DNA from: a virus
IMG/VR virus record: IMGVR_UViG_3300045988_163768
Strand: one strand, 5' to 3'
DNA: 64,000 nucleotides
In this document: in pieces, positions 4,822 through 64,000 of the stretch
Layout: every line of letters starts with the position of its first letter
Position numbering within the stretch: position 1 is the stretch's first letter
Notes under the pieces: generated by a model
Told to the model about the DNA's origin: nothing
Seen by the model: the letters and a program-made list of their open reading frames with translations, nothing else
Database searches by the model: none
Made by a program: the position numbers and the translations under genes

Positions 4822-7167
4822 ATGAAAATTATTAAAAGAAATGGAGAAACTGTTGCATTTGATCAAAATAAAATTATTGATGCAGTGTTATCTGCTTTTA
4901 AAGAAGTAGACGGAGATGTATCAGACTATGCTTATATTAAAGCTGGTAATATAGCAGACTATATACTAGAAACTTGTAAAGAGCGTGAGAAGCAAAACCA
5001 TTCTAATGATGAAAAAAATAACTCTTCTTATTTAACAGTAGAAGAAATTCAAGATTTAGTAGAAAATGGTCTTATGTCAACTAAACGAAAAGATGTTGCT
5101 AGAGCATATATTACATATAGATATAAAAAAAATATAAAAAGAAATCAAATGATGATTGCCAGTAAAATTAACGCGATAGATGTCCAAAATCAAAACGCAA
5201 ATGTGGATGAGCGTTCTTTTGGAGGTCGTATGGGAGAAGCCAGTGATGCTTTAATGAAACAATATGCTTTAGATTATTGCGTTTCAAATCTTTCTAAAAA
5301 AAATCATATTAATAATGAAATTTATATCCATGATTTAGGATCCTACGCTGTAGGTATGCATAATTGTTTAAGTATCCCTTTTGATAAATTACTAGCAGAA
5401 GGTTTTAATACCAGACAAGTAGACATTCGCCCTGCAAGAAGTTTAAGTACAGCTTTTCAATTAGTCGCGGTAATTTTTCAACTTCAATCTTTACAGCAAT
5501 TTGGAGGCGTTTCAGCGACTCATCTTGATTGGACTATGGTGCCATATGTAAGAAAAAGTTTCGTAAAACATTATCTAAATGGCTTATTTTATTGCGAGGA
5601 TGACGGATGGGCAGGTTTTAAAATAGAGGATATGCCTGAAGGTGTTTTTAAAAGACTTCAAAATAATTATAAAACAAAGGCAGAAAAACAGACAGTCGGA
5701 TCTAAAAAAGTAGATTCTCCTCATTGGATGGAAAAACAATCTATTGAAAGCGAATATTTTAAAGAATGTCCTAGAGCATATAGATATGCTTTAGATATGA
5801 CTAAAAAAGAATGTGAACAAGCAGTAGAGGGATTGTATCATAATTTAAATTCTCTCCAAAGTAGAAGTGGGAATCAGTTGCCTTTTACAAGTATTAATTA
5901 TGGAACTTGCACTTTACCAGAGGGAAGAATGATAATAAAAGCCTTATTACAAGGTTCTATTAATGGAGTAGGAAAACTACATAGAACTTCTATTTTTCCA
6001 TGCGGAATTTTTCAATGTATGAAAGGCGTCAATCGAGCTCCTGAAGATCCTAATTATGATTTATATAGACTTGCATTAAAAAGTACTGCCACTCGATTAT
6101 ACCCAAACTACGCAAATGTAGATTGGACTGGTAATGCAGGGTATAATAAAGACGATCCTAGCACTTATTTCTCAACGATGGGATGTAGAACTGCAAATGG
6201 TTGGGATATTAATGGATTAAATCAACTTAAGGATGGAAGAGGTAATATTTGTCCTGTGACAATCATTATGCCTACTTTAGCAATGGAAGTTAAAGAAACT
6301 AGTTTAAAAAATTCAGAGCCTTTTACAGAATATTTAGAAGGATTAGCCATTGATAATTTCTTAACTCTTTTAGATAAAAAAATAGATGAAGCAAAAGATA
6401 TGTTAATTGAACGCTTTGAGTGGATTTGCTCGCAATCTCCAGATTCCGCGAAATTTATGTATGAAAATGGAGTTATTGCAGGATACGTCCCAGAAGAGGG
6501 AATAAGAAGTGCTTTAAAGCATGGGACTCTTGCAATAGGTCAATTAGGCTTAGCGGAGACTTTACAATTATTAATTGGAAAAGATCACACTTCTCCAGAA
6601 GGTATGAAATTAGCAAAAAAGATTGAACAGCTATTTTCAGATAAATGCAATGAATTTAAGTGTAAATATCATCTTAATTTTGGAGTTTATTTTACTCCCG
6701 CAGAAAACTTATGCTATACTGCTATGAACAAATTTAAAGATAAGTATGGAGTAATAGAAAACGTAAGTGACAAAGATTTTTTCACAAATTCAATGCATGT
6801 GCCAGTATGGAAAGAAATGTCTCCTTTTGAAAAAATTGATATTGAATCTCAACTAACGGGGTATTCTTCTGCAGGTTGTATTACCTACGTTGAATTAGAT
6901 GGTGGGATAAAAAATAATCTTGATGCACTTGAAACAATAGTAAATTATGCCATGGATCACGACATTCCTTATTTCGCAGTGAATGTTCCTAACGACACTT
7001 GCTTAGACTGCGGTTTTACTGGAGAATTTGATAATAATTGTCCTATTTGCCATAGCAAAAATTTTCAAAGATTAAGACGTGTAACAGGATATTTAACAGG
7101 AGATTATTCAACTGCATTTAATCCTGGAAAGCAAGCAGAAGTAAAAATGAGAGTTCGTCATCGTTAG
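4822..7167 (+). CDS. nrdD: anaerobic ribonucleoside-triphosphate reductase (class III RNR)
   Basis: 781 aa with an N-terminal ATP-cone (KIIKRNGETVAFDQNKI). C-terminal Zn-ribbon CLDCGF...CPICHS followed by the glycyl-radical motif RRVTGYL. AGGAGG Shine-Dalgarno. Confidence 0.85.
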   Translation: MKIIKRNGETVAFDQNKIIDAVLSAFKEVDGDVSDYAYIKAGNIADYILETCKEREKQNHSNDEKNNSSYLTVEEIQDLVENGLMSTKRKDVARAYITYRYKKNIKRNQMMIASKINAIDVQNQNANVDERSFGGRMGEASDALMKQYALDYCVSNLSKKNHINNEIYIHDLGSYAVGMHNCLSIPFDKLLAEGFNTRQVDIRPARSLSTAFQLVAVIFQLQSLQQFGGVSATHLDWTMVPYVRKSFVKHYLNGLFYCEDDGWAGFKIEDMPEGVFKRLQNNYKTKAEKQTVGSKKVDSPHWMEKQSIESEYFKECPRAYRYALDMTKKECEQAVEGLYHNLNSLQSRSGNQLPFTSINYGTCTLPEGRMIIKALLQGSINGVGKLHRTSIFPCGIFQCMKGVNRAPEDPNYDLYRLALKSTATRLYPNYANVDWTGNAGYNKDDPSTYFSTMGCRTANGWDINGLNQLKDGRGNICPVTIIMPTLAMEVKETSLKNSEPFTEYLEGLAIDNFLTLLDKKIDEAKDMLIERFEWICSQSPDSAKFMYENGVIAGYVPEEGIRSALKHGTLAIGQLGLAETLQLLIGKDHTSPEGMKLAKKIEQLFSDKCNEFKCKYHLNFGVYFTPAENLCYTAMNKFKDKYGVIENVSDKDFFTNSMHVPVWKEMSPFEKIDIESQLTGYSSAGCITYVELDGGIKNNLDALETIVNYAMDHDIPYFAVNVPNDTCLDCGFTGEFDNNCPICHSKNFQRLRRVTGYLTGDYSTAFNPGKQAEVKMRVRHR

Positions 7168-52350: not shown

Positions 52351-53514
52351 TTATTTATTTTTCTTATTTCGACAACATTTACATATACTGTAAAAATGAT
52401 CTTTACTTGTCTTATTCTTTGAAAAAAATTTATTATGAGCTAATTTGATTTCCCCACAACGGGAACATTTTTTCCATTTTCCTTTTTTCTGAGTTGTGTA
52501 ATACCAAATTAAATAGTCTTCCTGAGCTTGCTCTGACAATAGCTTAGGTATTTTATTCCGCCATAAAGATGATATATATTCCACTGAATGTTTTACATTG
52601 TGTTTTTGATTCAACAGACTCTGAATTTCAAGATTTTGTTTTCCGTCTATTTTATAAATCAAGAGGTCATAATACATTGGATAACTATCTCTTAGAGTCT
52701 TCTCTATTAATGTATCTAAATCCTCCATTAAAAAATATGAATCACTGTAGAATTTTCCCCATGCATCTTCTTTTAGGCGGGAATAGTTACATAATAATGC
52801 AGATATGTGCTTAGGATTAAAAAAAGAAACTAAGCTATTATCTTCAATTTCATCATTTCCGCTAATAGAAACATTTTCATCAAAATCAATTTTGCTAAAA
52901 CTTTTAATTGCGTTCATACAATAAATTGGCGGCTTGTATGCACTTCTAATTACATATTGATCTTGTCTCATAGCAATAAGTTGCTTTTTTAATAAAAATT
53001 TCTTTTTACCAACTGCTTTTTTCTCAGCTTTTTCGACTTCCGCAATCGCGTCTACAAGTTGCTTTAACTCAGGGATTTCCGCAATATCCTGTTGAGTTAT
53101 TTGAAATTTAGGTGTAAAAATAATATTCTTATCATTGGCGATCATATTATAAATGCCATCTTCGCCATTCTCTAAGCGACCAACTAATCCTTCAAAAGAA
53201 GTTTCTCTTTTATTAACTGTGACCATATGATTATCAGTTAATATTTGCTTCTGTTTCCGCTCTTGTTTATCCATAGCAAAAATAATGTAATCTGATAATA
53301 TTTCTAAATATTTAGGTGTTAATTGCTCAGAAGGAGTCTTATCTATAATTTTTTTAACTAATTCATTCCGCTCTTCAGGAGTTTCTAAAGAATAATCTAG
53401 TTTAATAGTAGTTTGCATATTTTCTTCTTCGATTTGTTTTTCTGTTATTTTTTTTTCTTCTTCTAAAACATTATTCTCCTCAAAAGCCTTATCTTCTAAT
53501 GTTATTGGTGTCAT
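52351..53514 (-). CDS. hypothetical protein with a C-terminal zinc ribbon; first gene of the late operon
   Basis: 387 aa with C-terminal CSRCGE...CKCC. Confidence 0.35.
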   Translation of the reverse strand: MTPITLEDKAFEENNVLEEEKKITEKQIEEENMQTTIKLDYSLETPEERNELVKKIIDKTPSEQLTPKYLEILSDYIIFAMDKQERKQKQILTDNHMVTVNKRETSFEGLVGRLENGEDGIYNMIANDKNIIFTPKFQITQQDIAEIPELKQLVDAIAEVEKAEKKAVGKKKFLLKKQLIAMRQDQYVIRSAYKPPIYCMNAIKSFSKIDFDENVSISGNDEIEDNSLVSFFNPKHISALLCNYSRLKEDAWGKFYSDSYFLMEDLDTLIEKTLRDSYPMYYDLLIYKIDGKQNLEIQSLLNQKHNVKHSVEYISSLWRNKIPKLLSEQAQEDYLIWYYTTQKKGKWKKCSRCGEIKLAHNKFFSKNKTSKDHFYSICKCCRNKKNK

Positions 53515-53541: not shown

Positions 53542-53571
53542 ATTATACCACAAAAAAATTTTTTTGTCAAA
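53542..53571 (-). promoter_or_regulatory. late-operon promoter TTGACA-18-TATAAT (minus strand)
   Basis: Minus-strand TATAAT corresponds to plus-strand ATTATA at 53542-53547, and minus-strand TTGACA to plus-strand TGTCAA at 53566-53571. Confidence 0.5.
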
Positions 53572-54962: not shown

Positions 54963-55478
54963 TATCGCGGGTAGTTTTTAAAGAGAAAATGAGAAATATT
55001 TTTATTTTTTTAAAATCCTCTTTATTTTATTTTATTTTAATTTGTTTAAAAAAATTTTTTGGAGAGATTTTTAATTCTCGTTTTTTGATTTTATTTTTAG
55101 ACTTTTAGATTTGAAAAAATTTTTGGAGAGAGAATTGTGGAGAACACTATCTTTTTATAAAAGTAAAAAATTTTAATCCTTTAATATACCCCGGCATTAT
55201 GTTTAAGTATGGTCTGTAGTTTGAGCATCTCTTTTGAGCAAGAAGCAACAAGACACCGCCTAACAAATAATTTTTCAAATCATTTTCCAAAGAGGATATG
55301 CTTTTTGTTCAGAAGAGTTTTGAACACATTATTTTAAGCAAAGAGGAGAAAGAGTTAAACTAATAAAATAAATTCTTTAAATAACTAAAATAAAGCAAGA
55401 AGATTAGAATTTTTATTGGCTATTGGTAGCTTGCCATCTATCGTCGGAGCGTACACTTTCGCAACGCTCCGAGAAGCC

Positions 55479-55750
55479 TGTCAATAGGCAAAATGCACAA
55501 ATTTTTGGCTAAATTTTTGTAAAAAATGCACAAAGATATTTTCCTAAAATGAACTTGTCAATAGGTAAAATTGTACAAAAATACGTGGAAAATTTTGTGC
55601 ATTATGTCTATTGACAAACCCTGTCAATAGTAAAAGTGTACAAAAATATATTCTCATTTTTGTGTAAAATGTCAATAGACAAAAAATGTCAATAGGCAAT
55701 CTGCACAAAGTTTTAAAGGAAAAATTGTGTAAAATGTCTATTGACAGAAT
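55479..55750. repeat. cluster of about 7 direct and inverted ~23-bp iteron-like repeats TGTCAATAG-N5/6-TG(C/T)ACAAA
   Basis: Copies at about 55479, 55557, 55592 (inverted), 55621, 55665, 55687 and 55724 (inverted); additional copies at 59426, 62806 and 62875. Confidence 0.7.
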
Positions 55751-55770
55751 GAGCTAAAGGTGCTATAATG
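55742..55770 (+). promoter_or_regulatory. promoter TTGACA-17-TGcTATAAT firing into an AT-rich ORF-free tract
   Basis: TTGACA at 55742-55747 (inside the last repeat) and an extended -10 TGCTATAAT ending at 55770. Confidence 0.5.
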
Positions 55771-55789
55771 AGAGGTTAAGCTTAAGACA

Positions 55790-56160
55790 AAAGAAAGATA
55801 ATAATAATAATAATAATAATACAATATTATAACAATACAATACATAAATATAATTAACAATAACATTATCTTATATTATTGTTAATCTTATCAATTATAA
55901 CTATATATAAAGAAGAAATATAATGATAATAATGTTAACATTGGTACTGTAATATCTTATAATAATTATAATAAGATAGTATAATAATAATAATAATAAG
56001 CTTATAAAATAATACTAAATAAAATAGTATGATAATATTTATATTATATTTTATTTTACTATTTATAAAAAAGATATAAATATATATATTTAAAACTAAC
56101 TATTAATCTTAATAACATGAGTAAATATGCATTAAAATAAATAAAAATACTGTAAATAAA
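55790..56160. repeat. extremely AT-rich (>90%) ORF-free tract with (AAT)n microsatellites
   Basis: (ATA/AAT)7 at 55801-55822 and again at 55981-56000; only a handful of G/C in about 370 nt. Confidence 0.6.
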
Positions 56161-56815: not shown

Positions 56816-57197
56816 TAGATAAAGTATCTTTTTTGAATTTTATTAAAAAATTTGATATAATAATAATGTAAAGAAAATAAAATATTTAAAAAGGAGATAG
56901 GAAAGAACCGATGAAAAAAAGTCAATCTTAATGAATTGGCGGCTTTACAACTGGTATTTGAATTTATTTCAGTGCCGGAATTACTAACAGCCGCTATGAA
57001 TGACTTTTCTAAAGGTACTAGCATAAAAGATAAAGAAAACGCTGATTTATGCTATAAGGCTTTAGAATCATTCCTTAAATAAAAAAGGGACTCCCGAACT
57101 TGACAGTTCTGGAGTCGGTTCACCTACAATCTCCTTAAGTTCAGGTTTTTTCAGTGGAAATCCGCATAAAAAAATCTTTAGAAATTTTCCTAAAATG

Positions 57198-57226
57198 CTT
57201 GACAAAAGCAAGGAAATATAGTATCA
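57198..57226 (+). promoter_or_regulatory. early promoter unit TTGACA-17-TATCAT plus conserved leader
   Basis: TTGACA at 57198-57203, followed by the conserved leader ATCAAATGAAAGAGAGG. Confidence 0.5.
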
Positions 57227-57259
57227 TAGTATTATCAAATGAAAGAGAGGTAAAGAAAT

Positions 57260-57379
57260 ATGACAATGTTACTGACAACTCGAAAAGCATTTGAAACTGT
57301 AAAAAAATACTTAAAAGATAATCAATACATTTTTTCAGTAGAAAAAAATACAAACGGTTATCTGGTAAAAATTTCTTAA
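57260..57379 (+). CDS. hypothetical 39-aa early peptide
   Basis: Not in the ORF track because it is under 60 aa. Consensus promoter and GAGAGG Shine-Dalgarno 9 nt upstream; MTMLLTTRKAFETVKKYLKDNQYIFSVEKNTNGYLVKIS. Confidence 0.35.
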   Translation: MTMLLTTRKAFETVKKYLKDNQYIFSVEKNTNGYLVKIS

Positions 57380-57393
57380 TGGAGGGCTTAAAT

Positions 57394-57540
57394 ATGTTAG
57401 ATTTAGGATTATTTTTAGGAAGTAAAAAATTGATGTTGGTAGACACTGAGACAGGCGAGATTTACGCTGAAACAATAGAAGAAATTAACGCTTTTTTGAA
57501 AGAGCATGAAAATAACTATTTATTAAGATTACTGAGATAA
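57394..57540 (+). CDS. hypothetical 48-aa early peptide
   Basis: GGAGGG Shine-Dalgarno 7 nt upstream; MLDLGLFLGSKKLMLVDTETGEIYAETIEEINAFLKEHENNYLLRLLR. Confidence 0.35.
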   Translation: MLDLGLFLGSKKLMLVDTETGEIYAETIEEINAFLKEHENNYLLRLLR

Positions 57541-57602
57541 AAACAAGATGGAGTTATGGGGAAAAAAGGAAGATAAAAAATCTTCCTTTTTTTAAAAAAG
57601 GC

Positions 57603-57631
57603 TTGACAAAATAAAAAATATCTGCTATACT
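57603..57631 (+). promoter_or_regulatory. early promoter unit TTGACA-17-TATACT
   Basis: TTGACA at 57603-57608, plus a conserved leader. Confidence 0.45.
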
Positions 57632-57667
57632 TAATATATCAAATGAAAGAGAAAGAGGTTGATAAAA

Positions 57668-57829
57668 ATGAAAAAAACAGATAAAGAAATTTTATTACAG
57701 ATTTTTAAAAAAGCCGACATAGAGATTTGCTATGAGGAAAAGGATTATTTTGAAGCTGAGCTTTCTTCTTATGGTGAAAACATTGGCTTTCAATTTGATG
57801 CTGACGGCAAACTTCAAAAACTTCTTTAA
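57668..57829 (+). CDS. hypothetical 53-aa early protein
   Basis: AGAGG Shine-Dalgarno; MKKTDKEILLQIFKKADIEICYEEKDYFEAELSSYGENIGFQFDADGKLQKLL. Confidence 0.35.
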   Translation: MKKTDKEILLQIFKKADIEICYEEKDYFEAELSSYGENIGFQFDADGKLQKLL

Positions 57830-57847
57830 AACTAATTTAAAATAGGT

Positions 57848-57876
57848 CTTGACAAAAGCCAAGACCTATAGTATAA
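57848..57876 (+). promoter_or_regulatory. early promoter unit with its -35 embedded in a perfect hairpin
   Basis: AGGTCTTGACAAAAGCCAAGACCT at 57843-57866 contains TTGACA; TATAAT at 57871-57876. Confidence 0.5.
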
Positions 57877-57909
57877 TAAATATATCAAATGAAAGAGAGG
57901 AAAACAAAA

Positions 57910-58164
57910 ATGAAAATCAACTTTGATAAAAAAACAGTAGGAACTTGCATCGAGAAATTGACAGTAGGAAGTACTTTTTTTAGTAAAAGAACTGGTACTG
58001 ATGAAATTGGATTATACATGGTTATTGATAAAAGTAGTGGTCTTTTCTTAGACAAACATCAAGGGAAGGTCATGGCAGTTAACCTTGCTACTGGACAGAT
58101 TAGAACCTTTAAAGCATCTCAGAAAGTAGAACCGATTAAAGCTGAAGTTATTCTTCCAAAATAA
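57910..58164 (+). CDS. hypothetical 84-aa early protein
   Basis: The ORF-track start at 57889 lies inside the conserved leader; the ATG at 57910 is the more plausible start. Confidence 0.4.
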   Translation: MKINFDKKTVGTCIEKLTVGSTFFSKRTGTDEIGLYMVIDKSSGLFLDKHQGKVMAVNLATGQIRTFKASQKVEPIKAEVILPK

Positions 58165-58186
58165 AATAAAAAAATAAAATAGGTCT

Positions 58187-58215
58187 TGACAAAAGTCAAG
58201 ACCTATAGTATAATA
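58187..58215 (+). promoter_or_regulatory. early promoter unit, a near-identical copy of the 57848 unit
   Basis: AGGTCTTGACAAAAGTCAAGACCT 10-bp-stem hairpin at 58181-58204; TATAAT at 58210-58215. Confidence 0.5.
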
Positions 58216-58241
58216 AATATATCAAATGAAAGAGAGGAAAA

Positions 58242-58529
58242 ATGGAGTTTTCAAGAGATGAAATAATTGAAATTAAAAAGTATTATCTCAGACGAATGAA
58301 TTCATTCATCAGAAAATACATTAGTGAAGACGTAATAACTAATGTTTGGCTTCCCCTGTTTAAAGATGGATGGAATGATGATATTCTAACAAAGTGTGTA
58401 AGCGATGATGATTCTTGGTGTAATTGTATTAACGCTTATCGCAAATGTTTTGAAATTGAAGGAATTGATTTTTTTAAAAAAGGGGTTGACAAAAAGTCGG
58501 AAATATGGTATAATAAATGTATCAAATGA
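58242..58529 (+). CDS. hypothetical early protein, paralog A
   Basis: 95 aa; SEDVITNVWLPLFKDGWNDDILTKCVSDDDSWCNCINAYRKCFEIEGI. Confidence 0.45.
   Translation: MEFSRDEIIEIKKYYLRRMNSFIRKYISEDVITNVWLPLFKDGWNDDILTKCVSDDDSWCNCINAYRKCFEIEGIDFFKKGVDKKSEIWYNKCIK
58485..58513 (+). promoter_or_regulatory. early promoter unit AAAAAGGGGTTGACA-17-TATAAT
   Basis: TTGACA at 58485-58490, TATAAT at 58508-58513. Confidence 0.5.
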
Positions 58530-58546
58530 AAGAGAGGTAAATAAAA

Positions 58547-58779
58547 TGAGCGTATCAAGAAAAGAGATAGTTAGAATTAGAAAGAATCTTCTTAGACAGA
58601 TGGATGTTTTTATCAGAGAAAATATTAGCGAAGACATTGTCATTGACGTTTGGTTTACTTGTGGGTTAGAAGATGGGTGGGATGAGAGAATCTTGACGCA
58701 GTACGCAAATGATGATGACGCATGGAATGATTGTATTAATGCTTGCAGAAGATGTTGTAAAATTGAAGGAATTTTATAA
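58547..58779 (+). CDS. hypothetical early protein, paralog B of the 58242 gene
   Basis: 77 aa; SEDIVIDVWFTCGLEDGWDERILTQYANDDDAWNDCINACRRCCKIEGI, roughly 45% identical to paralog A. Confidence 0.45.
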
Positions 58780-58786
58780 AAAGGGG

Positions 58787-58815
58787 TTGACAAAATCAGC
58801 TTCTTGTGATATAAT
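58787..58815 (+). promoter_or_regulatory. early promoter unit
   Basis: GGGGTTGACA at 58787-58792, TATAAT at 58810-58815. Confidence 0.5.
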
Positions 58816-58847
58816 AAAGACAGTTAAAGAAAGAGAGGAAAACAATA

Positions 58848-59000
58848 ATGACAAGGACAGAGATGATGGATAAAATGATTCAAGTAAAAGGATTTGAAAA
58901 TGACACAGTAATTATATTCTGTAAAATAGCAGAGAATCAAAACATTTCAAAAGAAATAGTAAAAATTGCTTATGAAGCAATAATGAAACGAAAAAAATAA
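58848..59000 (+). CDS. hypothetical 50-aa early protein
   Basis: GAGAGG Shine-Dalgarno; MTRTEMMDKMIQVKGFENDTVIIFCKIAENQNISKEIVKIAYEAIMKRKK. Confidence 0.35.
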   Translation: MTRTEMMDKMIQVKGFENDTVIIFCKIAENQNISKEIVKIAYEAIMKRKK

Positions 59001-59066
59001 GAAATCACGTGAATTTAATAATAAATAATGAAAATAACTAGTCATAAGCAGAAAAAATTTTTATAA

Positions 59067-59100
59067 CAAAAGTCTAAGTAAATTAGACTTTTGTTTTTTG
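59067..59100 (+). terminator. rho-independent terminator
   Basis: CAAAAGTCTAA...TTAGACTTTTG stem followed by T6. Confidence 0.55.
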
Positions 59101-59163: not shown

Positions 59164-59259
59164 TTGACAAGTCGCGGAAAATGTGTTATAATAGCCGGCT
59201 CGCGAGCAGTCAATGCGAGCCGAGCCTTCCATTATAACATAGTTGAGACATTTTGTCAA
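59164..59259. promoter_or_regulatory. convergent promoter pair 1: + strand TTGACA-17-TGtTATAAT and - strand TTGACA-17-TGtTATAAT bracketing a GC hairpin
   Basis: Plus-strand -35 at 59164-59169 and -10 at 59187-59192. GC hairpin GGCTCGC...GCGAGCC at 59197-59221. Minus-strand -10 at 59231-59236 (ATTATA) and -35 at 59254-59259 (TGTCAA). Confidence 0.5.
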
Positions 59260-59328
59260 GAGAAAAAATGCACAAATTTTTCAAAATTTTTATCCCAAAA
59301 TTTGTGCATTTTTTTTTGAAAAAAACTC

Positions 59329-59432
59329 TTGACAAGGTGGCTCGAGTATGTTATAATGAAAGAGGGCAAAGTCCGTTCGGGGTCGGGGCACCCCGAAATT
59401 TTATTATACCACATCTAGCACCTTTTTGTCAA
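59329..59432. promoter_or_regulatory. convergent promoter pair 2 bracketing the hairpin TTCGGGGTCGGGGCACCCCGAA
   Basis: Plus-strand TTGACA at 59329-59334 and TATAAT at 59352-59357. Hairpin at 59376-59397. Minus-strand -10 ATTATA at 59403-59408 and -35 TGTCAA at 59427-59432 (spacer 18). Confidence 0.5.
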
Positions 59433-59737
59433 TAGGCAATTTGCACAAAAAATAAATTAAAAAAATCCCATTTTTTGACATGGTATACAAAATGCACAAA
59501 ATTTAATAAAATAATACCAAAATTTTCTACACCTTGTGCAAAGTGACGAAATTTTAATAAAAAATCATACCTTTTTTGACACGCAGAAACACAATATGTG
59601 ATATTTAAGGTAGCAAAATGCACAAGAATCCGCCTAAATCCGCATTATTTTTCTACATTTGTATATTTTGACAAAAATACTATGATTTTTATATAAAATT
59701 TCATCACTTTTGCACAATAAAAAATAAATTTGACTTT

Positions 59738-59766: not shown

Positions 59767-59870
59767 CAAAGGACATTAAACTTAAATCAGAAATAAAGCA
59801 AAGCTTACATAATGAGCGGTCGGTCGCAAGGCACTTGCGATAATCAAAAAAGAAAGGATTGATAATTATT

Positions 59871-60361: not shown

Positions 60362-60541
60362 ATGATGGATAAAGCAATCAGAAGTGGTAAAGAACATAGA
60401 AAAGAATACCGCAGAGCAAAAGCAAAGTCAATGTCATGCAGAAATCATGGTTCATGCACTCATTGTTTAAACAATAGGTTGCATAAATATAAAATTAAAG
60501 AGTTGTCTACGAACCAACAGTTAAAAGATTTTAAAAAATAA
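60362..60541 (+). CDS. hypothetical 59-aa basic Cys/His protein (possible zinc binder)
   Basis: Not in the ORF track because it is under 60 aa; GGTGA Shine-Dalgarno; ...KSMSCRNHGSCTHCLNNRLHKYKIKEL... Confidence 0.3.
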   Translation: MMDKAIRSGKEHRKEYRRAKAKSMSCRNHGSCTHCLNNRLHKYKIKELSTNQQLKDFKK

Positions 60542-60551
60542 ACGAAAGTGC

Positions 60552-60580
60552 TTGACTTTTAAGCTAAGATGCGATATAAT
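60552..60580 (+). promoter_or_regulatory. promoter TTGACT-17-TATAAT inside a 64-bp perfect direct repeat (copy 1)
   Basis: Repeat at 60542-60605, identical to 61333-61396. Confidence 0.5.
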
Positions 60581-60635
60581 ACCATTGTAACAAGTTAATA
60601 GTAAAAAAAATAAATGAAAGTTGAGGAAATCAAAA

Positions 60636-61346
60636 ATGAGTAGAAGAAAAGAGTTTTTCATGGTATTGGATACAGAAACTGCGAATAGTGTAAATGAACC
60701 AATCCCTTATGATATTGGCTATGCTATTACAGATAGACACGGTAACATTGTCACCGAAAGAAGCTTTGTAGTCGCTGAGACATTTATTGACTTGAAAGAA
60801 GCTATGAATAGTGCCTACTACGCTGAAAAAATTCCGAAATACTGGGATGATTTAAAAAGCGGAAAAAGAACCATGAAAAGCATTTTCAATATTAGAAAAC
60901 AGATGTTTGCAGATATGAGAGAATATAATGTGAAAAAAGTTGGTGCTTACAATATGAATTTTGATAGAAAAGCATTAAACAATGCTATTAGATACCATAG
61001 CAAAAGTTTTATTCGCTGGTTTTTCCCTTATGGTACAGAATATTTTTGTATTTGGAACATGGCTTGTCAGATGATTTTAAGTACAAACACCTATATCAAA
61101 TTTGCTGAGAAAAACGGATTTGAGTCTGAAAAAGGCAATCTTTTAACTAATGCTGAGGTATGCTATAAATATATTAAAAAGAATATTGATTTTGTAGAAT
61201 CTCATACAGGCTTAGAAGATGTAAAAATTGAAATCGAAATTCTAAAAAAATGTTTTGACCAGCATAAAAAAATGGATAGAAGCATTAAGCCGTCATGTTG
61301 GAGACTTCCGCAGAAAAAAAGAAAAGAATTACACGAAAGTGCTTGA
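60636..61346 (+). CDS. DEDDh (DnaQ-like) 3'-5' exonuclease
   Basis: MVLDTETAN is an Exo I D-x-E motif, and HTGLEDVKIE is an Exo III H-x4-D motif. The ORF-track start at 60621 lies upstream of the ATG at 60636. Confidence 0.5.
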   Translation: MSRRKEFFMVLDTETANSVNEPIPYDIGYAITDRHGNIVTERSFVVAETFIDLKEAMNSAYYAEKIPKYWDDLKSGKRTMKSIFNIRKQMFADMREYNVKKVGAYNMNFDRKALNNAIRYHSKSFIRWFFPYGTEYFCIWNMACQMILSTNTYIKFAEKNGFESEKGNLLTNAEVCYKYIKKNIDFVESHTGLEDVKIEIEILKKCFDQHKKMDRSIKPSCWRLPQKKRKELHESA

Positions 61347-61371
61347 CTTTTAAGCTAAGATGCGATATAAT
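61343..61371 (+). promoter_or_regulatory. promoter inside the 64-bp direct repeat (copy 2)
   Basis: Identical to the 60552 unit. Confidence 0.5.
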
Positions 61372-61419
61372 ACCATTGTAACAAGTTAATAGTAAATTTT
61401 AAAAAGGATGTGATATAAC

Positions 61420-61948: not shown

Positions 61949-62356
61949 ATGACAAACACAAACAAAATGACAAAAAAAGACTTTTTTAAACTGCTGGCAG
62001 GTATCGTAGAAAAAACAGAAGATTTTGACAAGAAAACAGAAACACTTGACTTTATCAATCACGAGATTGAACTGTTAAATAAGAAATCTTCAGCACCAGG
62101 CAAAAAGAAAACAGCTCACATTAAAGAAAATGAGGAGCTTATGGAACTTATTGGAATTGCCTTAGAGCTGTTTGGTAAACCTGTCACGATAACTACAATG
62201 ATTAAAGAGAACGCCGAAATGAGTAAGCTTTCTTCTCAGAAGTTGTCTGCACTGTTGAAAAAAATGATTGAAGCCGGCAAAGTGGTCAGGACAGTTGAAA
62301 AAAGAGTTCCTTACTTTTCTCTTGCAAAAGAAGAAGAAACTGAGAAAGAAGAGTAA
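61949..62356 (+). CDS. hypothetical protein, paralog of the partial gene at 63619
   Basis: 135 aa. The HEIELLNKKSS...LELFGKPVTITTMIKEN...VVRTVEKRVPYFSLAKEE block is shared with the paralog. Confidence 0.45.
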   Translation: MTNTNKMTKKDFFKLLAGIVEKTEDFDKKTETLDFINHEIELLNKKSSAPGKKKTAHIKENEELMELIGIALELFGKPVTITTMIKENAEMSKLSSQKLSALLKKMIEAGKVVRTVEKRVPYFSLAKEEETEKEE

Positions 62357-62386: not shown

Positions 62387-62421
62387 GAGGGCGGATTACA
62401 CAAAATCCGTCCTCCTTTTTT
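62387..62421 (+). terminator. rho-independent terminator
   Basis: GAGGGCGGATT...AATCCGTCCTC stem followed by T6. Confidence 0.5.
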
Positions 62422-62644
62422 GTGCATTTTTTTTCTACTTTTTGCACAAAAAATCCGCTGCTGGAGGGATGTTTTTTATTTAAAAATACCAGAGAACAAA
62501 AAAGTCAATGCACATAAATTACAAAAATAGCCAAAAAATTTTTATAATTTTGGTATTGTTGCACAAAGAGTCCCAGTCTATAATTTTGTGAAAATGTAAC
62601 AAAAATAAGGCTCAAAAAATTTTTTATTTTGTTTATTTTGCCTA

Positions 62645-62738
62645 TTGACAAGCACCCGAAAGTGTGGTATAATAGCGGGTCGCCTTGGATCAAGGCGACC
62701 GAAATATCCATTATACCATACGCTGACGATTTTGTCAA
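62645..62738. promoter_or_regulatory. convergent promoter pair 3 bracketing the hairpin GGTCGCCTT-GGATC-AAGGCGACC
   Basis: Plus-strand TTGACA at 62645-62650 and TGGTATAAT ending at 62673. Hairpin at 62678-62700. Minus-strand -10 ATTATACCA starting at 62710 and -35 TGTCAA at 62733-62738. Confidence 0.5.
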
Positions 62739-63004
62739 GAGAAAAAATGCACAAAAATAAAAAACTTTTTATCCCAAAATTCTCCGTTTTGCACAAAAAT
62801 CTCTGTCAATAGGTAAAATGAACAAAATTTTATATCAAAATCCGCCAATTTTCTCTATTATGCACAATGCTAAACCTGTCAATAGTCAAAATAGACAAAA
62901 TATTTTATTATATTTTGTGTAAAATGCCATTGACTTTTATTTTTTCTTTTGATATAATGTATACATAAAATAAATAAGAAATAAGAAATAGGAAGGTGGT
63001 ACTT

Positions 63005-63280
63005 ATGTTAGAAAAAATTTTAGACCGCTTAGAAGCGGATTTAGAAAAAGGTGGTTTTTGGAATAGTGATAGTTATAGCTATAATTATAGCTATAATGCT
63101 ATTAATGATTTATTAGAATCCTATCAAAAAGAAGGATGGGAGTTTGAATTTGATATTGATTTTATTGAATATCTTAATCCAAAACAACCAAATATTGTAA
63201 GCTTTTCTCTTGCCTGGATTGAAGAAGGTAAGCTTATGACTCAAGTAGTTTTGTGGGAACAAGAAAAAATAAAAAAGTAA
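63005..63280 (+). CDS. hypothetical protein
   Basis: 91 aa from the ATG at 63005 (AGGAAGGTGG Shine-Dalgarno); the ORF-track GTG start is at 62996. Confidence 0.4.
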   Translation: MLEKILDRLEADLEKGGFWNSDSYSYNYSYNAINDLLESYQKEGWEFEFDIDFIEYLNPKQPNIVSFSLAWIEEGKLMTQVVLWEQEKIKK

Positions 63281-63309
63281 TTGACAAAAGCAAAAAAGTA
63301 TGCTATAAT
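63281..63309 (+). promoter_or_regulatory. promoter unit TTGACA-17-TATAAT plus leader ATCAAAAGAAAGAAAGAGG
   Basis: Near-identical to the unit at 63563-63591. Confidence 0.5.
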
Positions 63310-63342
63310 AAATATATCAAAAGAAAGAAAGAGGTATTGACT

Positions 63343-63531
63343 ATGAGAACAATGAATTACACAAAAGGTTTTGCAAGCATGAGAAAAGCTGATTTTATCA
63401 AACTCTGGAATACAGACTTTGTGTTCAGAAATTTTGCAAAGAATAAAGGTATTAACGTTATCCAGAATAATGTTATCTTTTTCAATGCTGATGGCTCTGT
63501 TAAGTCTATTGCTGGTGCTTACATTAAGTAA
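63343..63531 (+). CDS. hypothetical 62-aa protein
   Basis: ATG at 63343 after the conserved Shine-Dalgarno; the ORF-track start at 63253 overlaps the promoter. Confidence 0.35.
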   Translation: MRTMNYTKGFASMRKADFIKLWNTDFVFRNFAKNKGINVIQNNVIFFNADGSVKSIAGAYIK

Positions 63532-63562
63532 GCACCAGAAAAGAAAAAAAATAAAAAAGTAA

Positions 63563-63591
63563 TTGACAAAAACAAAAAAGTATGCTATAAT
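63563..63591 (+). promoter_or_regulatory. promoter unit, a copy of the 63281 unit
   Basis: Promoter AATTGACAAAAACAAAAAAGTATGCTATAAT. Confidence 0.5.
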
Positions 63592-63618
63592 AAATATATC
63601 AAAAGAAAGAAAGAGGTA

Positions 63619-64000
63619 ATGAATATGATGAAAGACAAAATGACAAAAAAAGATTGGTTTGAAACCATTAGAGCTTTTCTGGAAGAAAGTGACTTTGAAC
63701 TAAAAGAAGAAGCACTTAACTTTCTCAGCCATGAAATCGAGCTGTTGAATAAAAAATCTTCCAGCGGTAAAAAAACCAAAAATCAGAAAGAAAATGAGGA
63801 AATTAAAAAACTCATTCTTGTGGCTCTGGAGTTATTTGGTAAACCTGTTACAGTTACAACCATGATTAAAGAAAACTCTGAGATGAACAAACTTTCTCCT
63901 CAGAAGTTATCGGTTCTTCTTAAACAGCTTGTCGAATCCGAAGAAGTGGTTAGAACTGTTGAAAAAAGAGTTCCTTACTTCTCTCTTGCAAAAGAAGAAG
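63619..64000 (+). CDS. hypothetical protein, partial (runs off the window end), paralog of the 61949 gene
   Basis: MNMMKDKMTKKDWFETIRAFLEE...SHEIELLNKKSS...LELFGKPVTVTTMIKENSEMNKLSPQKLSVLLKQL...VVRTVEKRVPYFSLAKEE. Confidence 0.4.
   Translation, partial: MNMMKDKMTKKDWFETIRAFLEESDFELKEEALNFLSHEIELLNKKSSSGKKTKNQKENEEIKKLILVALELFGKPVTVTTMIKENSEMNKLSPQKLSVLLKQLVESEEVVRTVEKRVPYFSLAKEE

Follow-up and report, generated by a model that had tools for sequence, protein, structure and literature searches.

The window analyzed here is a 64,000-nucleotide stretch of the IMG/VR virus record IMGVR_UViG_3300045988_163768, which derives from an uncultured phage of ~86 kb. At exactly three places in the window, two predicted host-type promoters face each other across a GC-rich hairpin: positions 59164–59259 (unit 1), 59329–59432 (unit 2), and 62645–62738 (unit 3). 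The units lie in a plus-strand early region (53.6–64 kb), and all of the genes neighboring them are on the plus strand. Units 1 and 2 are located between a block of small open reading frames (ORFs) that ends at 59000 and a nucleotide-metabolism block that starts at 59859. Unit 3 is located between the end of the nucleotide-metabolism block (62356, with a terminator at 62387–62414) and the next small-ORF block. Approximately 15 other promoters in the early region are perfect or nearly so, and each precedes a conserved leader and a small ORF. The units contain no plausible gene and none of the leader-plus-small-ORF arrangement of these ordinary early promoters.

All three units have the same layout: a plus-strand promoter of the form TTGACA-17-TGnTATAAT, a GC-rich hairpin core, and a minus-strand promoter of the form TTGACA-17/18-TGnTATAAT. 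In unit 1, the plus-strand promoter P_L1 (59164–59192, TTGACA-17-TGtTATAAT) runs with the genes, has an A-rich upstream element, and its −10 hexamer ends 3 nt before the stem; P_R1 (59231–59259, minus strand, TTGACA-17-TGtTATAAT) runs against the genes with 8 nt between its −10 and the stem. Unit 2 consists of P_L2 (59329–59357, plus strand, TTGACA-17-TGtTATAAT) and P_R2 (59403–59432, minus strand, TTGACA-18-TGgTATAAT), and the −10 of P_R2 is 5 nt from the stem. In unit 3, P_L3 (62645–62673, plus strand, TTGACA-17-TGgTATAAT) has a −10 that ends 4 nt before the stem, and P_R3 (62710–62738, minus strand, TTGACA-17-TGgTATAAT) has a TATAAT-GG discriminator and a −10 that is 9 nt from the stem. The six promoters all score 12/12 against the TTGACA and TATAAT hexamers and all have an extended −10 (TG one base upstream of the −10 hexamer). 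The spacer is 17 bp in five of them and 18 bp in P_R2. As judged from hexamers, spacer, and extended −10, all six are predicted sigma-70/sigma-A-type promoters. The hexamers are identical across the copies and the spacers are not. Dinucleotide-preserving shuffles of the window were used as the chance control, and the complete face-to-face pattern was found in none of 100; the window also contains 20 single perfect promoters where 0.19 are expected. A sequence-only reading of this DNA had described three pairs of perfect extended-consensus promoters facing each other and had held that six such promoters could not be chance, and both statements stand.

The gap between the facing −10 hexamers is 38 nt in unit 1, 45 nt in unit 2, and 36 nt in unit 3. 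If transcription starts ~7 nt past the −10, the predicted start sites are ~24, 31, and 22 bp apart, respectively. The 20–25 bp spacing first proposed therefore fits units 1 and 3 but not the wider unit 2. The description of the unit as a quasi-palindrome is also correct in part: the hexamers are constant and the spacers differ, but the unit is not symmetric, and the promoter that opposes the genes is its conserved core. A polymerase open complex protects roughly −55 to +20, and with start sites ~22–31 bp apart, two polymerases would not fit on one unit.

The footprint argument bears on the proposal that the units are a sink that ties up the host sigma-A RNA polymerase holoenzyme. Full-consensus promoters with an extended −10, a GG discriminator, GC-rich initially transcribed DNA, and no gene behind them would suit such a role. 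However, overlapping promoters would hold one polymerase per unit where two separate promoters would hold two, the ~15 productive consensus promoters of the early region far outnumber the three units, and the phage itself encodes a sigma factor that depends on free core enzyme. The sink is a poor fit and highly improbable. The phage sigma factor is a 387-amino acid protein encoded on the minus strand at 52351–53514 (phrog_5767, E = 1.5e-51). Its gene is divergent from the early region, and has a perfect host-type promoter at 53542–53570 on the minus strand; the factor presumably drives the minus-strand late genes. No late-promoter motif similar to the hairpins was found in the sequences preceding the minus-strand genes.

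Among the GC-rich stretches of the 64-kb window, no GC-rich hairpins are more stable than the three found in the cores of the units, in agreement with the earlier view that the promoters bracket genuine hairpins. Hairpin 1 (59196–59222) is a 27-nt palindrome with an 8-bp GC stem and an 11-nt loop, an RNA fold energy of −18.2 kcal/mol, and a fold z-score of −2.75. Hairpin 2 (59376–59397) has an 8-bp stem followed by AAATTTTATTAT, and its energy of −16.1 kcal/mol and z-score of −1.65 mean that, taken alone, it only marginally beats its shuffles. A small extra stem is present in unit 2 at 59364–59374. Hairpin 3 (62678–62700) has a 10-bp stem followed by GAAATATCC, an energy of −18.3 kcal/mol, and a z-score of −4.0. 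The hairpins have the GC-rich stem-loop of an intrinsic terminator. A U-tract 0–2 nt after the stem is absent from units 1 and 3, where the tails are GAGCCTTCC and GAAATATCC (family consensus GAAATTTCC). A terminator scan flags hairpin 2 alone, on the plus strand only, making it the sole terminator-like hairpin of the three.

A promoter that fires into a structured region recalls the R-loop-primed replication origins of the T4 oriF/oriG type, an option that the sequence-only reading had listed, or of ColE1, and in principle both leading strands could be initiated from convergent primers. Against this stands the nature of the DNA downstream of the promoters, which is a GC clamp formed by a palindrome of 60–78% GC and not an easily unwound AT-rich element. 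Relatives have six or more modules per 10–13 kb, which does not fit the few copies of an origin, and the GC skew does not change at the units, its sole turn being near 53 kb where the gene strand switches. A box array with an extremely AT-rich stretch at 55474–56160 is the better candidate. An origin at the units fits poorly and is extremely improbable.

Two structures flank unit 1. The intrinsic terminator of the upstream early block (59065–59095, plus strand) has a 13-bp stem followed by a T-run, and the A/T-rich run on its far side makes it likely that this element also stops the leftward P_R1 transcript. Between units 1 and 2 is a long AT-rich hairpin (59260–59318) formed by a TGCACAAATTT...AAATTTGTGCA inverted repeat with T-runs on both sides. 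The predicted P_L1 RNA (~120 nt) and P_R2 RNA (~135 nt) both end in this hairpin (z-scores −3.9 and −5.1), and the predicted P_R1 RNA extends ~165 nt to the terminator at 59065–59095. Thus, three of the four transcripts of units 1 and 2 are predicted to stop within 120–165 nt. No clear stop was seen for the P_L2, P_L3, and P_R3 transcripts, and no conserved ORF lies behind either promoter.

The layout recurs in other phages. A scan of IMG/VR in which only the four hexamers were specified matched at least 119 contigs, spanning 28–48% GC. One of them (L052) is 97% identical to the window and has all three units. A comparable search through 596 Gb of bacterial genomes gave only 45 matches, nearly all in gut or rumen metagenome-assembled genome (MAG) contigs. 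Many of these contigs are assigned to Clostridia; some assignments are implausible, which suggests mis-binned phage DNA. The proposed element seems to be common among uncultured phages whose presumed hosts are Clostridia of the gut and rumen.

Approximately 40% of the matches follow one oriented design consisting of TATAAT, 3–4 nt, a GC stem-loop, GAA(A)TTTCC, and ATTATA, with 40 unique units in IMG/VR and ~26 in MAG contigs. Some other matches come from unrelated families, such as one whose cores are rich in TTACG repeats. The distance from the −10 to the stem, measured over 140 distinct promoter-adjacent hairpins, is bimodal with values of 3–4 and 7–9 nt. The promoter on the 3–4 nt side (P_L) has the same direction as the flanking genes, which is clear in the window and in the deposited phage genome phAss-1 and was taken from a rough ORF call in the IMG/VR loci. 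The promoter on the 7–9 nt side (P_R) is opposite to the gene direction and has a discriminator that starts with GG (TATAAT-GG). The predicted +1 of P_R falls on the first bases of the stem and that of P_L falls 2–4 nt inside the stem.

The two promoters are not equally constant. Among the GC hairpins in the fetched loci that have at least one good adjacent promoter, 38 are two-sided and 28 are one-sided. The one-sided cases are mostly P_R alone, placed just after the stop codon or terminator of a small forward gene and pointing back at it. P_L-only cases are rarer; in some, a T-run follows the stem or P_R has decayed. Another 12 two-sided units have an imperfect hexamer (TATACT or TAAAAT), which in every case belongs to P_L, with P_R at 12/12. 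These data identify P_R plus the hairpin as the constant core of the module. P_R is arranged back-to-back with the next forward promoter, and ~65–70 nt separate the two −35 hexamers. In relatives, modules recur every 1–2 kb beside small early ORFs and can be dense, with six in the ~10-kb locus L083 and six in the ~13 kb spanned by L034 and L098. RBS-like strings in one locus (L105) had raised the idea that promoter plus hairpin form an mRNA 5′ leader, which was rejected because a terminator or the 3′ end of a convergent gene follows. A single-strand promoter was also considered and rejected on sequence grounds.

The hairpins conserve pairing and not sequence. The stems of the 140 promoter-adjacent hairpins contain 1248 Watson-Crick pairs (~97%), 6 G:T pairs, 14 A:C pairs, and 15 mismatches. 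The stem sequence changes in almost every copy while the arms stay complementary. Among 32 hairpins of 27 nt aligned without gaps, 96.5% of the cells pair, 7 of the 8 stem pairs have changes on both sides, and none of the 8 has a one-sided change. Hairpin selection required a perfect seed of 6–7 bp, so the paired share is partly built in, but the covariation is not, and the same hairpins appear in a set ascertained through the promoters alone. G.U strand bias, examined as a pointer to the functional RNA strand, gave no usable signal because the stems are almost wholly Watson-Crick. G.U pairs are not in excess, so either pairing counts on both strands or the DNA palindrome itself is maintained.

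Hairpin length peaks at 27 nt over the 140 hairpins, with a typical stem of 8–9 bp and a loop of 9–11 nt. The loops of the 27-nt class have a conserved G..CGT motif (G-N2-C-G-T) on the P_R strand, which reads YCACG-like on the forward strand. The motif is independent of the stem sequence and was seen in L006, L018, L023, L034, L081, L098, L102, and others; the three window hairpins do not have it. Rfam returned no match at the gathering score and only chance-level matches with an E-value threshold, and tRNA and tmRNA searches found nothing. A CRISPR-repeat mimic (an RNA anti-CRISPR) was considered and rejected because the three window hairpins are mutually unrelated in sequence. A miniature inverted-repeat transposable element or Correia-like repeat was rejected because the copies share only hexamers, boxes, and pairing, and their spacers and stems are unrelated.

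These features raise the possibility that the units are small-RNA genes, whose abundant hairpin-capped RNAs would be cis-antisense regulators or decoys for a host RNA-binding factor or nuclease. A hairpin at the 5′ start of an RNA is known to stabilize it against 5′-end-dependent decay. The units combine promoter sequences at maximal strength with a hairpin at or beside the predicted +1 and predicted terminated products of 120–165 nt, the 27-nt hairpin class has its conserved loop motif, and transcripts of the P_R-only modules would be antisense to forward genes at their 3′ ends. But the RNA body of a P_R-only module is the antisense of whichever gene lies upstream, and the bodies of different copies share only promoter-derived motifs, which makes a shared trans-acting seed unlikely. 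The stems also differ between copies inside one genome, the loop motif is absent from the window's own hairpins, and no Rfam family matches. We consider dedicated small-RNA genes unlikely.

Maximal-affinity promoters at fixed short distances into a hairpin, the lack of a gene behind them, and their location at the ends of early units lead us to favor, with a probability of roughly 40%, a reading in which the units are dead-end, mutually exclusive pairs of convergent host-type promoters that constitute a boundary or interference module between early transcription units. In this mechanism, one polymerase at a time would hold a unit, as the start-site spacing of ~22–31 bp suggests. Either transcript would start with the hairpin, which would cap its 5′ end against 5′-end-dependent decay, and would then have to cross the opposing promoter. 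The P_L1, P_R1, and P_R2 transcripts would be halted at ~120–165 nt by the flanking bidirectional terminators. The output would be polymerase occupancy, collision, and short hairpin-capped non-coding RNAs instead of gene expression. Read-through and antisense transcription would be blocked across the boundary in both directions, and neighboring promoters would be coupled through interference. The face-to-face form would be the two-sided version of the P_R plus hairpin module. Among the functions offered by the sequence-only reading, the mutually exclusive or collision site and the short sense/antisense RNAs are the ones retained.

Several points weigh against a boundary module. Its start sites, polymerase occupancy, and termination are all predictions from the DNA, and its insulating step presupposes collision or occlusion. 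Hairpins 1 and 3 are, by their sequence, not canonical terminators, having no U-tract directly after the stem, and ordinary terminators are already present behind the forward genes of the window, where a further boundary has no obvious purpose. For P_L2 and P_L3, an evident terminator is missing upstream of the next gene, so these promoters might feed the genes that follow. The model leaves the conserved G..CGT loop motif of the commonest 27-nt class unexplained. A single unit is also dispensable: the P_R half can be lost, and the hairpin of unit 1 is mostly gone in one close relative (L078).

Comparison of close relatives shows how the units change. The core of unit 1 has three states among 97%-identical genomes, namely the window form, an inverted form in L052, and a 13-nt deletion in L078, and it is the only change in ~800 nt around the unit. 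The inversion (6504–6541 of L052) flips the polarity of unit 1 such that P_L gets the longer distance to the stem (9 and 4 nt). The deletion removes 13 nt between CGAGC direct repeats. These changes are slippage or template-switch events typical of palindromes. Orthologous sites elsewhere differ in the presence of P_R and in hairpin sequence. Divergence between the window and L052 is patchy everywhere, and for this reason the suggestion that the non-coding region is more conserved than its coding flanks was dropped. Searches with paired flanks for an 'empty cassette' gave mostly paralogous cross-matches, and the one clear orthologous pair reflects loss of P_R with no gene insertion.

Variation of this kind could mean that the units are recombination joints between mobile early-gene cassettes, similar to the PeSL (promoter-early stem-loop) elements discussed below, in which case a face-to-face unit would be an 'empty' cassette and regulation would be secondary. 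The modules located by small early ORFs every 1–2 kb in relatives, the variable P_R and hairpin at orthologous sites with flanks 92–95% identical, the inversion and deletion of unit 1, and the patchy divergence, which is consistent with block exchange, all accord with this idea. Random gene loss, on the other hand, would not fix P_L 3–4 nt from the stem in dozens of unrelated copies, and hexamers that remain at 11–12/12 while the spacers diverge indicate selection on promoter function. Recombination joints are therefore a distinctly unlikely explanation.

The units are part of a larger cassette, whose other components are TTTGTGCA boxes upstream, a forward promoter placed back-to-back, and bidirectional terminators on the flanks. 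The box, as TTTGTGCA-N9, is directly upstream of TTGACA on both P_R and its back-to-back forward promoter. The P_R1 box (59254–59275, minus strand) is TTGTGCATTTTTTCTCTTGACA and takes in the −35 hexamer, and the P_R2 box (59427–59448, minus strand) is TTGTGCAAATTGCCTATTGACA, a perfect match to the box consensus. In unit 3, boxes are found at P_L3 (62629–62650, plus strand, TTGTTTATTTTGCCTATTGACA) and next to the −35 of P_R3 (62733–62754, minus strand). In units 1 and 2 only P_R has a box, and P_L has the A-rich upstream element of ordinary early promoters.

This distribution would suit a timing switch for delayed-early genes, in which P_R occludes P_L until an early phage protein binds the TTTGTGCA box beside the P_R −35, shuts P_R, and frees P_L to transcribe the genes downstream. 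The boxes cluster in operator-like arrays, the genes downstream of units 1 and 2 are of nucleotide-metabolism and replication type, and higher-GC relatives usually have no terminator between P_R and the next forward promoter. A precedent is SPBRE, an operator repeated at early promoters of SPbeta and bound by the master repressor MrpR (PMC10516654). SPBRE resembles the TTTGTGCA box in being a short repeat on many early promoters of a large Firmicutes phage, but the parallel is limited to the boxes, and SPBRE (acaaatacaaaNaatatgtata) is located in the spacer/−10 region and is unrelated to the TTTGTGCA box in sequence. The P_L1 transcript is predicted to end at 59260–59318, before any gene, and the box is also present on P_L3 and on ~60% of the P_L copies elsewhere. 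P_R plus hairpin is common without P_L, so gating P_L cannot be the core function, and no box-binding protein was identified. A timing switch is the main rival of the boundary module but a somewhat unlikely account of the units.

Boxes also occur away from the units. Eight copies (TTGTGCA..CTATTGACA) form an array at 55479–55746 with alternating orientation and a spacing of ~65 bp. A 27-nt GC hairpin (55446–55472) abuts the array, which ends in a perfect promoter (55741–55769) that fires into ~370 nt of ATA/ATAATA repeats with no ORF. The whole region (55446–56160) is a better candidate than the units for a replication origin or a master operator.

The boundary module can be compared with convergent promoters of known function. 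Coliphages 186 (pR/pL) and P2 (Pe/Pc) have face-to-face lytic and lysogenic promoters, with occlusion and collision allowing the stronger promoter to interfere with the weaker one. The single promoter pair of the 186 genome has start sites ~62 bp apart and unequal strengths, and an operon is transcribed from each promoter. The units resemble these switches in being convergent sigma-70-type promoters in a phage. Boxes that are candidates for a repressor-bound operator adjoin the P_R −35. They differ from 186 in having start sites 22–31 bp apart, several copies per genome, two full-consensus promoters, a shared start-site hairpin, and no genes, there being no conserved or plausible ORF behind either promoter. 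The E. coli bioA/bioBFCD operons have overlapping face-to-face promoters that both express genes and a palindromic operator, bioO, that is bound by BirA. These promoters and those of the Ecl18kI restriction-modification system are like the units in that an overlapping facing pair has a palindrome between or over it. However, bioO is one fixed operator sequence, whereas the palindrome of the units differs in each copy with its arms perfectly complementary, which points to base pairing or a palindrome-maintaining process and not to one cognate protein.

Antisense systems provide a second comparison. P22 Pant/Psar, pCF10 prgQ/prgX, and type I toxin-antitoxin pairs of Firmicutes such as bsrG/SR4 of SPbeta are convergent promoter or antisense systems in which a bidirectional terminator is often common to the transcripts and both polymerase collision and RNA pairing contribute. 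As predicted for the units, the promoter of a small RNA opposes a forward unit. These systems have one target gene and a conserved RNA, whereas here a generic module stands behind many unrelated genes or a bare promoter. The PeSL elements of T4-type phages, which Arbiol et al. reportedly described in 2010, are said to consist of an early promoter and a stem-loop that flank small early ORFs in variable regions and to be linked to cassette shuffling. The units, too, repeat a promoter/stem-loop motif beside small early ORFs. PeSL reportedly has its stem-loop and promoter in the same direction, as a terminator followed by the next promoter, while the promoters of the units point into the hairpin from one or both sides.

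Megablast and blastn searches with the region found no close relatives among deposited phages. Some proteins of the phage resemble those of SPbeta: the DnaE-type polymerase is 37% identical to YorL of SPbeta, the nearest named relative by DNA polymerase, and a 2842-amino acid tape-measure-like ORF and a terminase are each weakly similar to SPbeta proteins. An anaerobic ribonucleotide reductase is also encoded. Face-to-face units were found neither in SPbeta nor in Enterocloster phage PMBT24, a cultured relative identified through the phAss-1 paper. An 831-amino acid protein of PMBT24 (L169, 9612–12107) is annotated as 'RNA-dependent RNA polymerase' and may be a YonO-like single-subunit RNA polymerase; a BLAST of the window ORFs against the SPbeta genome gave no YonO-like match. 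The only deposited genome found to have units is phAss-1 (OQ749652), a metagenome-assembled genome of 136 kb with a predicted Clostridia host, where they are unannotated. It has two face-to-face units and one lone reverse promoter versus ~40 forward consensus promoters. Promoters, hairpins, terminators, and repeats go unmentioned in the paper on this genome (PMC10607447). One annotated phAss-1 coding sequence, WIC39738.1 (L168, 4335–5279), spans a face-to-face unit at 5173–5263 on the strand opposite to all of its neighbors and is probably a spurious gene call.

A literature search on convergent and face-to-face promoters turned up only 186, the bio operon, and Ecl18kI and no description of the unit. 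Together with Rfam and the phAss-1 genome paper, it leaves intact the claim that no element with this architecture has been described. The parts are familiar from interfering convergent promoters and promoter/stem-loop cassettes. What is undescribed is the conserved architecture, in which two full-consensus promoters ~22–31 bp apart share one start-site hairpin and the gene-opposing promoter is invariant. We tentatively suggest that the units may represent a previously unrecognized class of phage element, a one-polymerase boundary at which occupancy and head-on collision, in place of a U-tract terminator or a repressor, would insulate or time early transcription units. If occupancy and collision operate in this way, the unit would amount to a compact transcriptional insulator or toggle of natural origin that works in both directions, would bear on how early genes are partitioned and timed in large Firmicutes phages, and would be a directly reusable part for synthetic biology.

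The IMG/VR scan also returned a separate family of face-to-face perfect promoters, on contigs of ~30–40 kb, in which GTTACG/CGTAAC repeats fill the cores and spacers (L001, L007, L012, L017, L024, L032, L036, L038, L040, L053, L061, L064, L071, L072, L101, and L115). This family is unrelated to the hairpin class and may be a lysis-lysogeny switch with operators.

The early region has other repeats. Six to eleven near-identical promoter-leader cassettes (TTGACAAAAG...TATAATAAATATATCAAATGAAAGAGAGG) are found at 57184–58860 and 63264–63630, each before a small ORF, and this modular organization is reminiscent of a host-takeover block. Promoter-leader cassettes of the same style, with the spacer TTGACAYAAAAAAATTTTTRTGNTATAAT, are present in phAss-1. 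A 73-nt promoter cassette (TTGACT-17-TATAAT) occurs in two copies of 96% identity, 60533–60605 and 61324–61396, which flank an exonuclease-like gene (60621–61346). Divergence between the window and L052 is concentrated at exactly 60400–60600 and 61000–61400, and the coincidence of these peaks with the cassette copies suggests cassette exchange. A 214-nt direct repeat of 76% identity (62123–62336 and 63787–64000) indicates paralogous small early genes.

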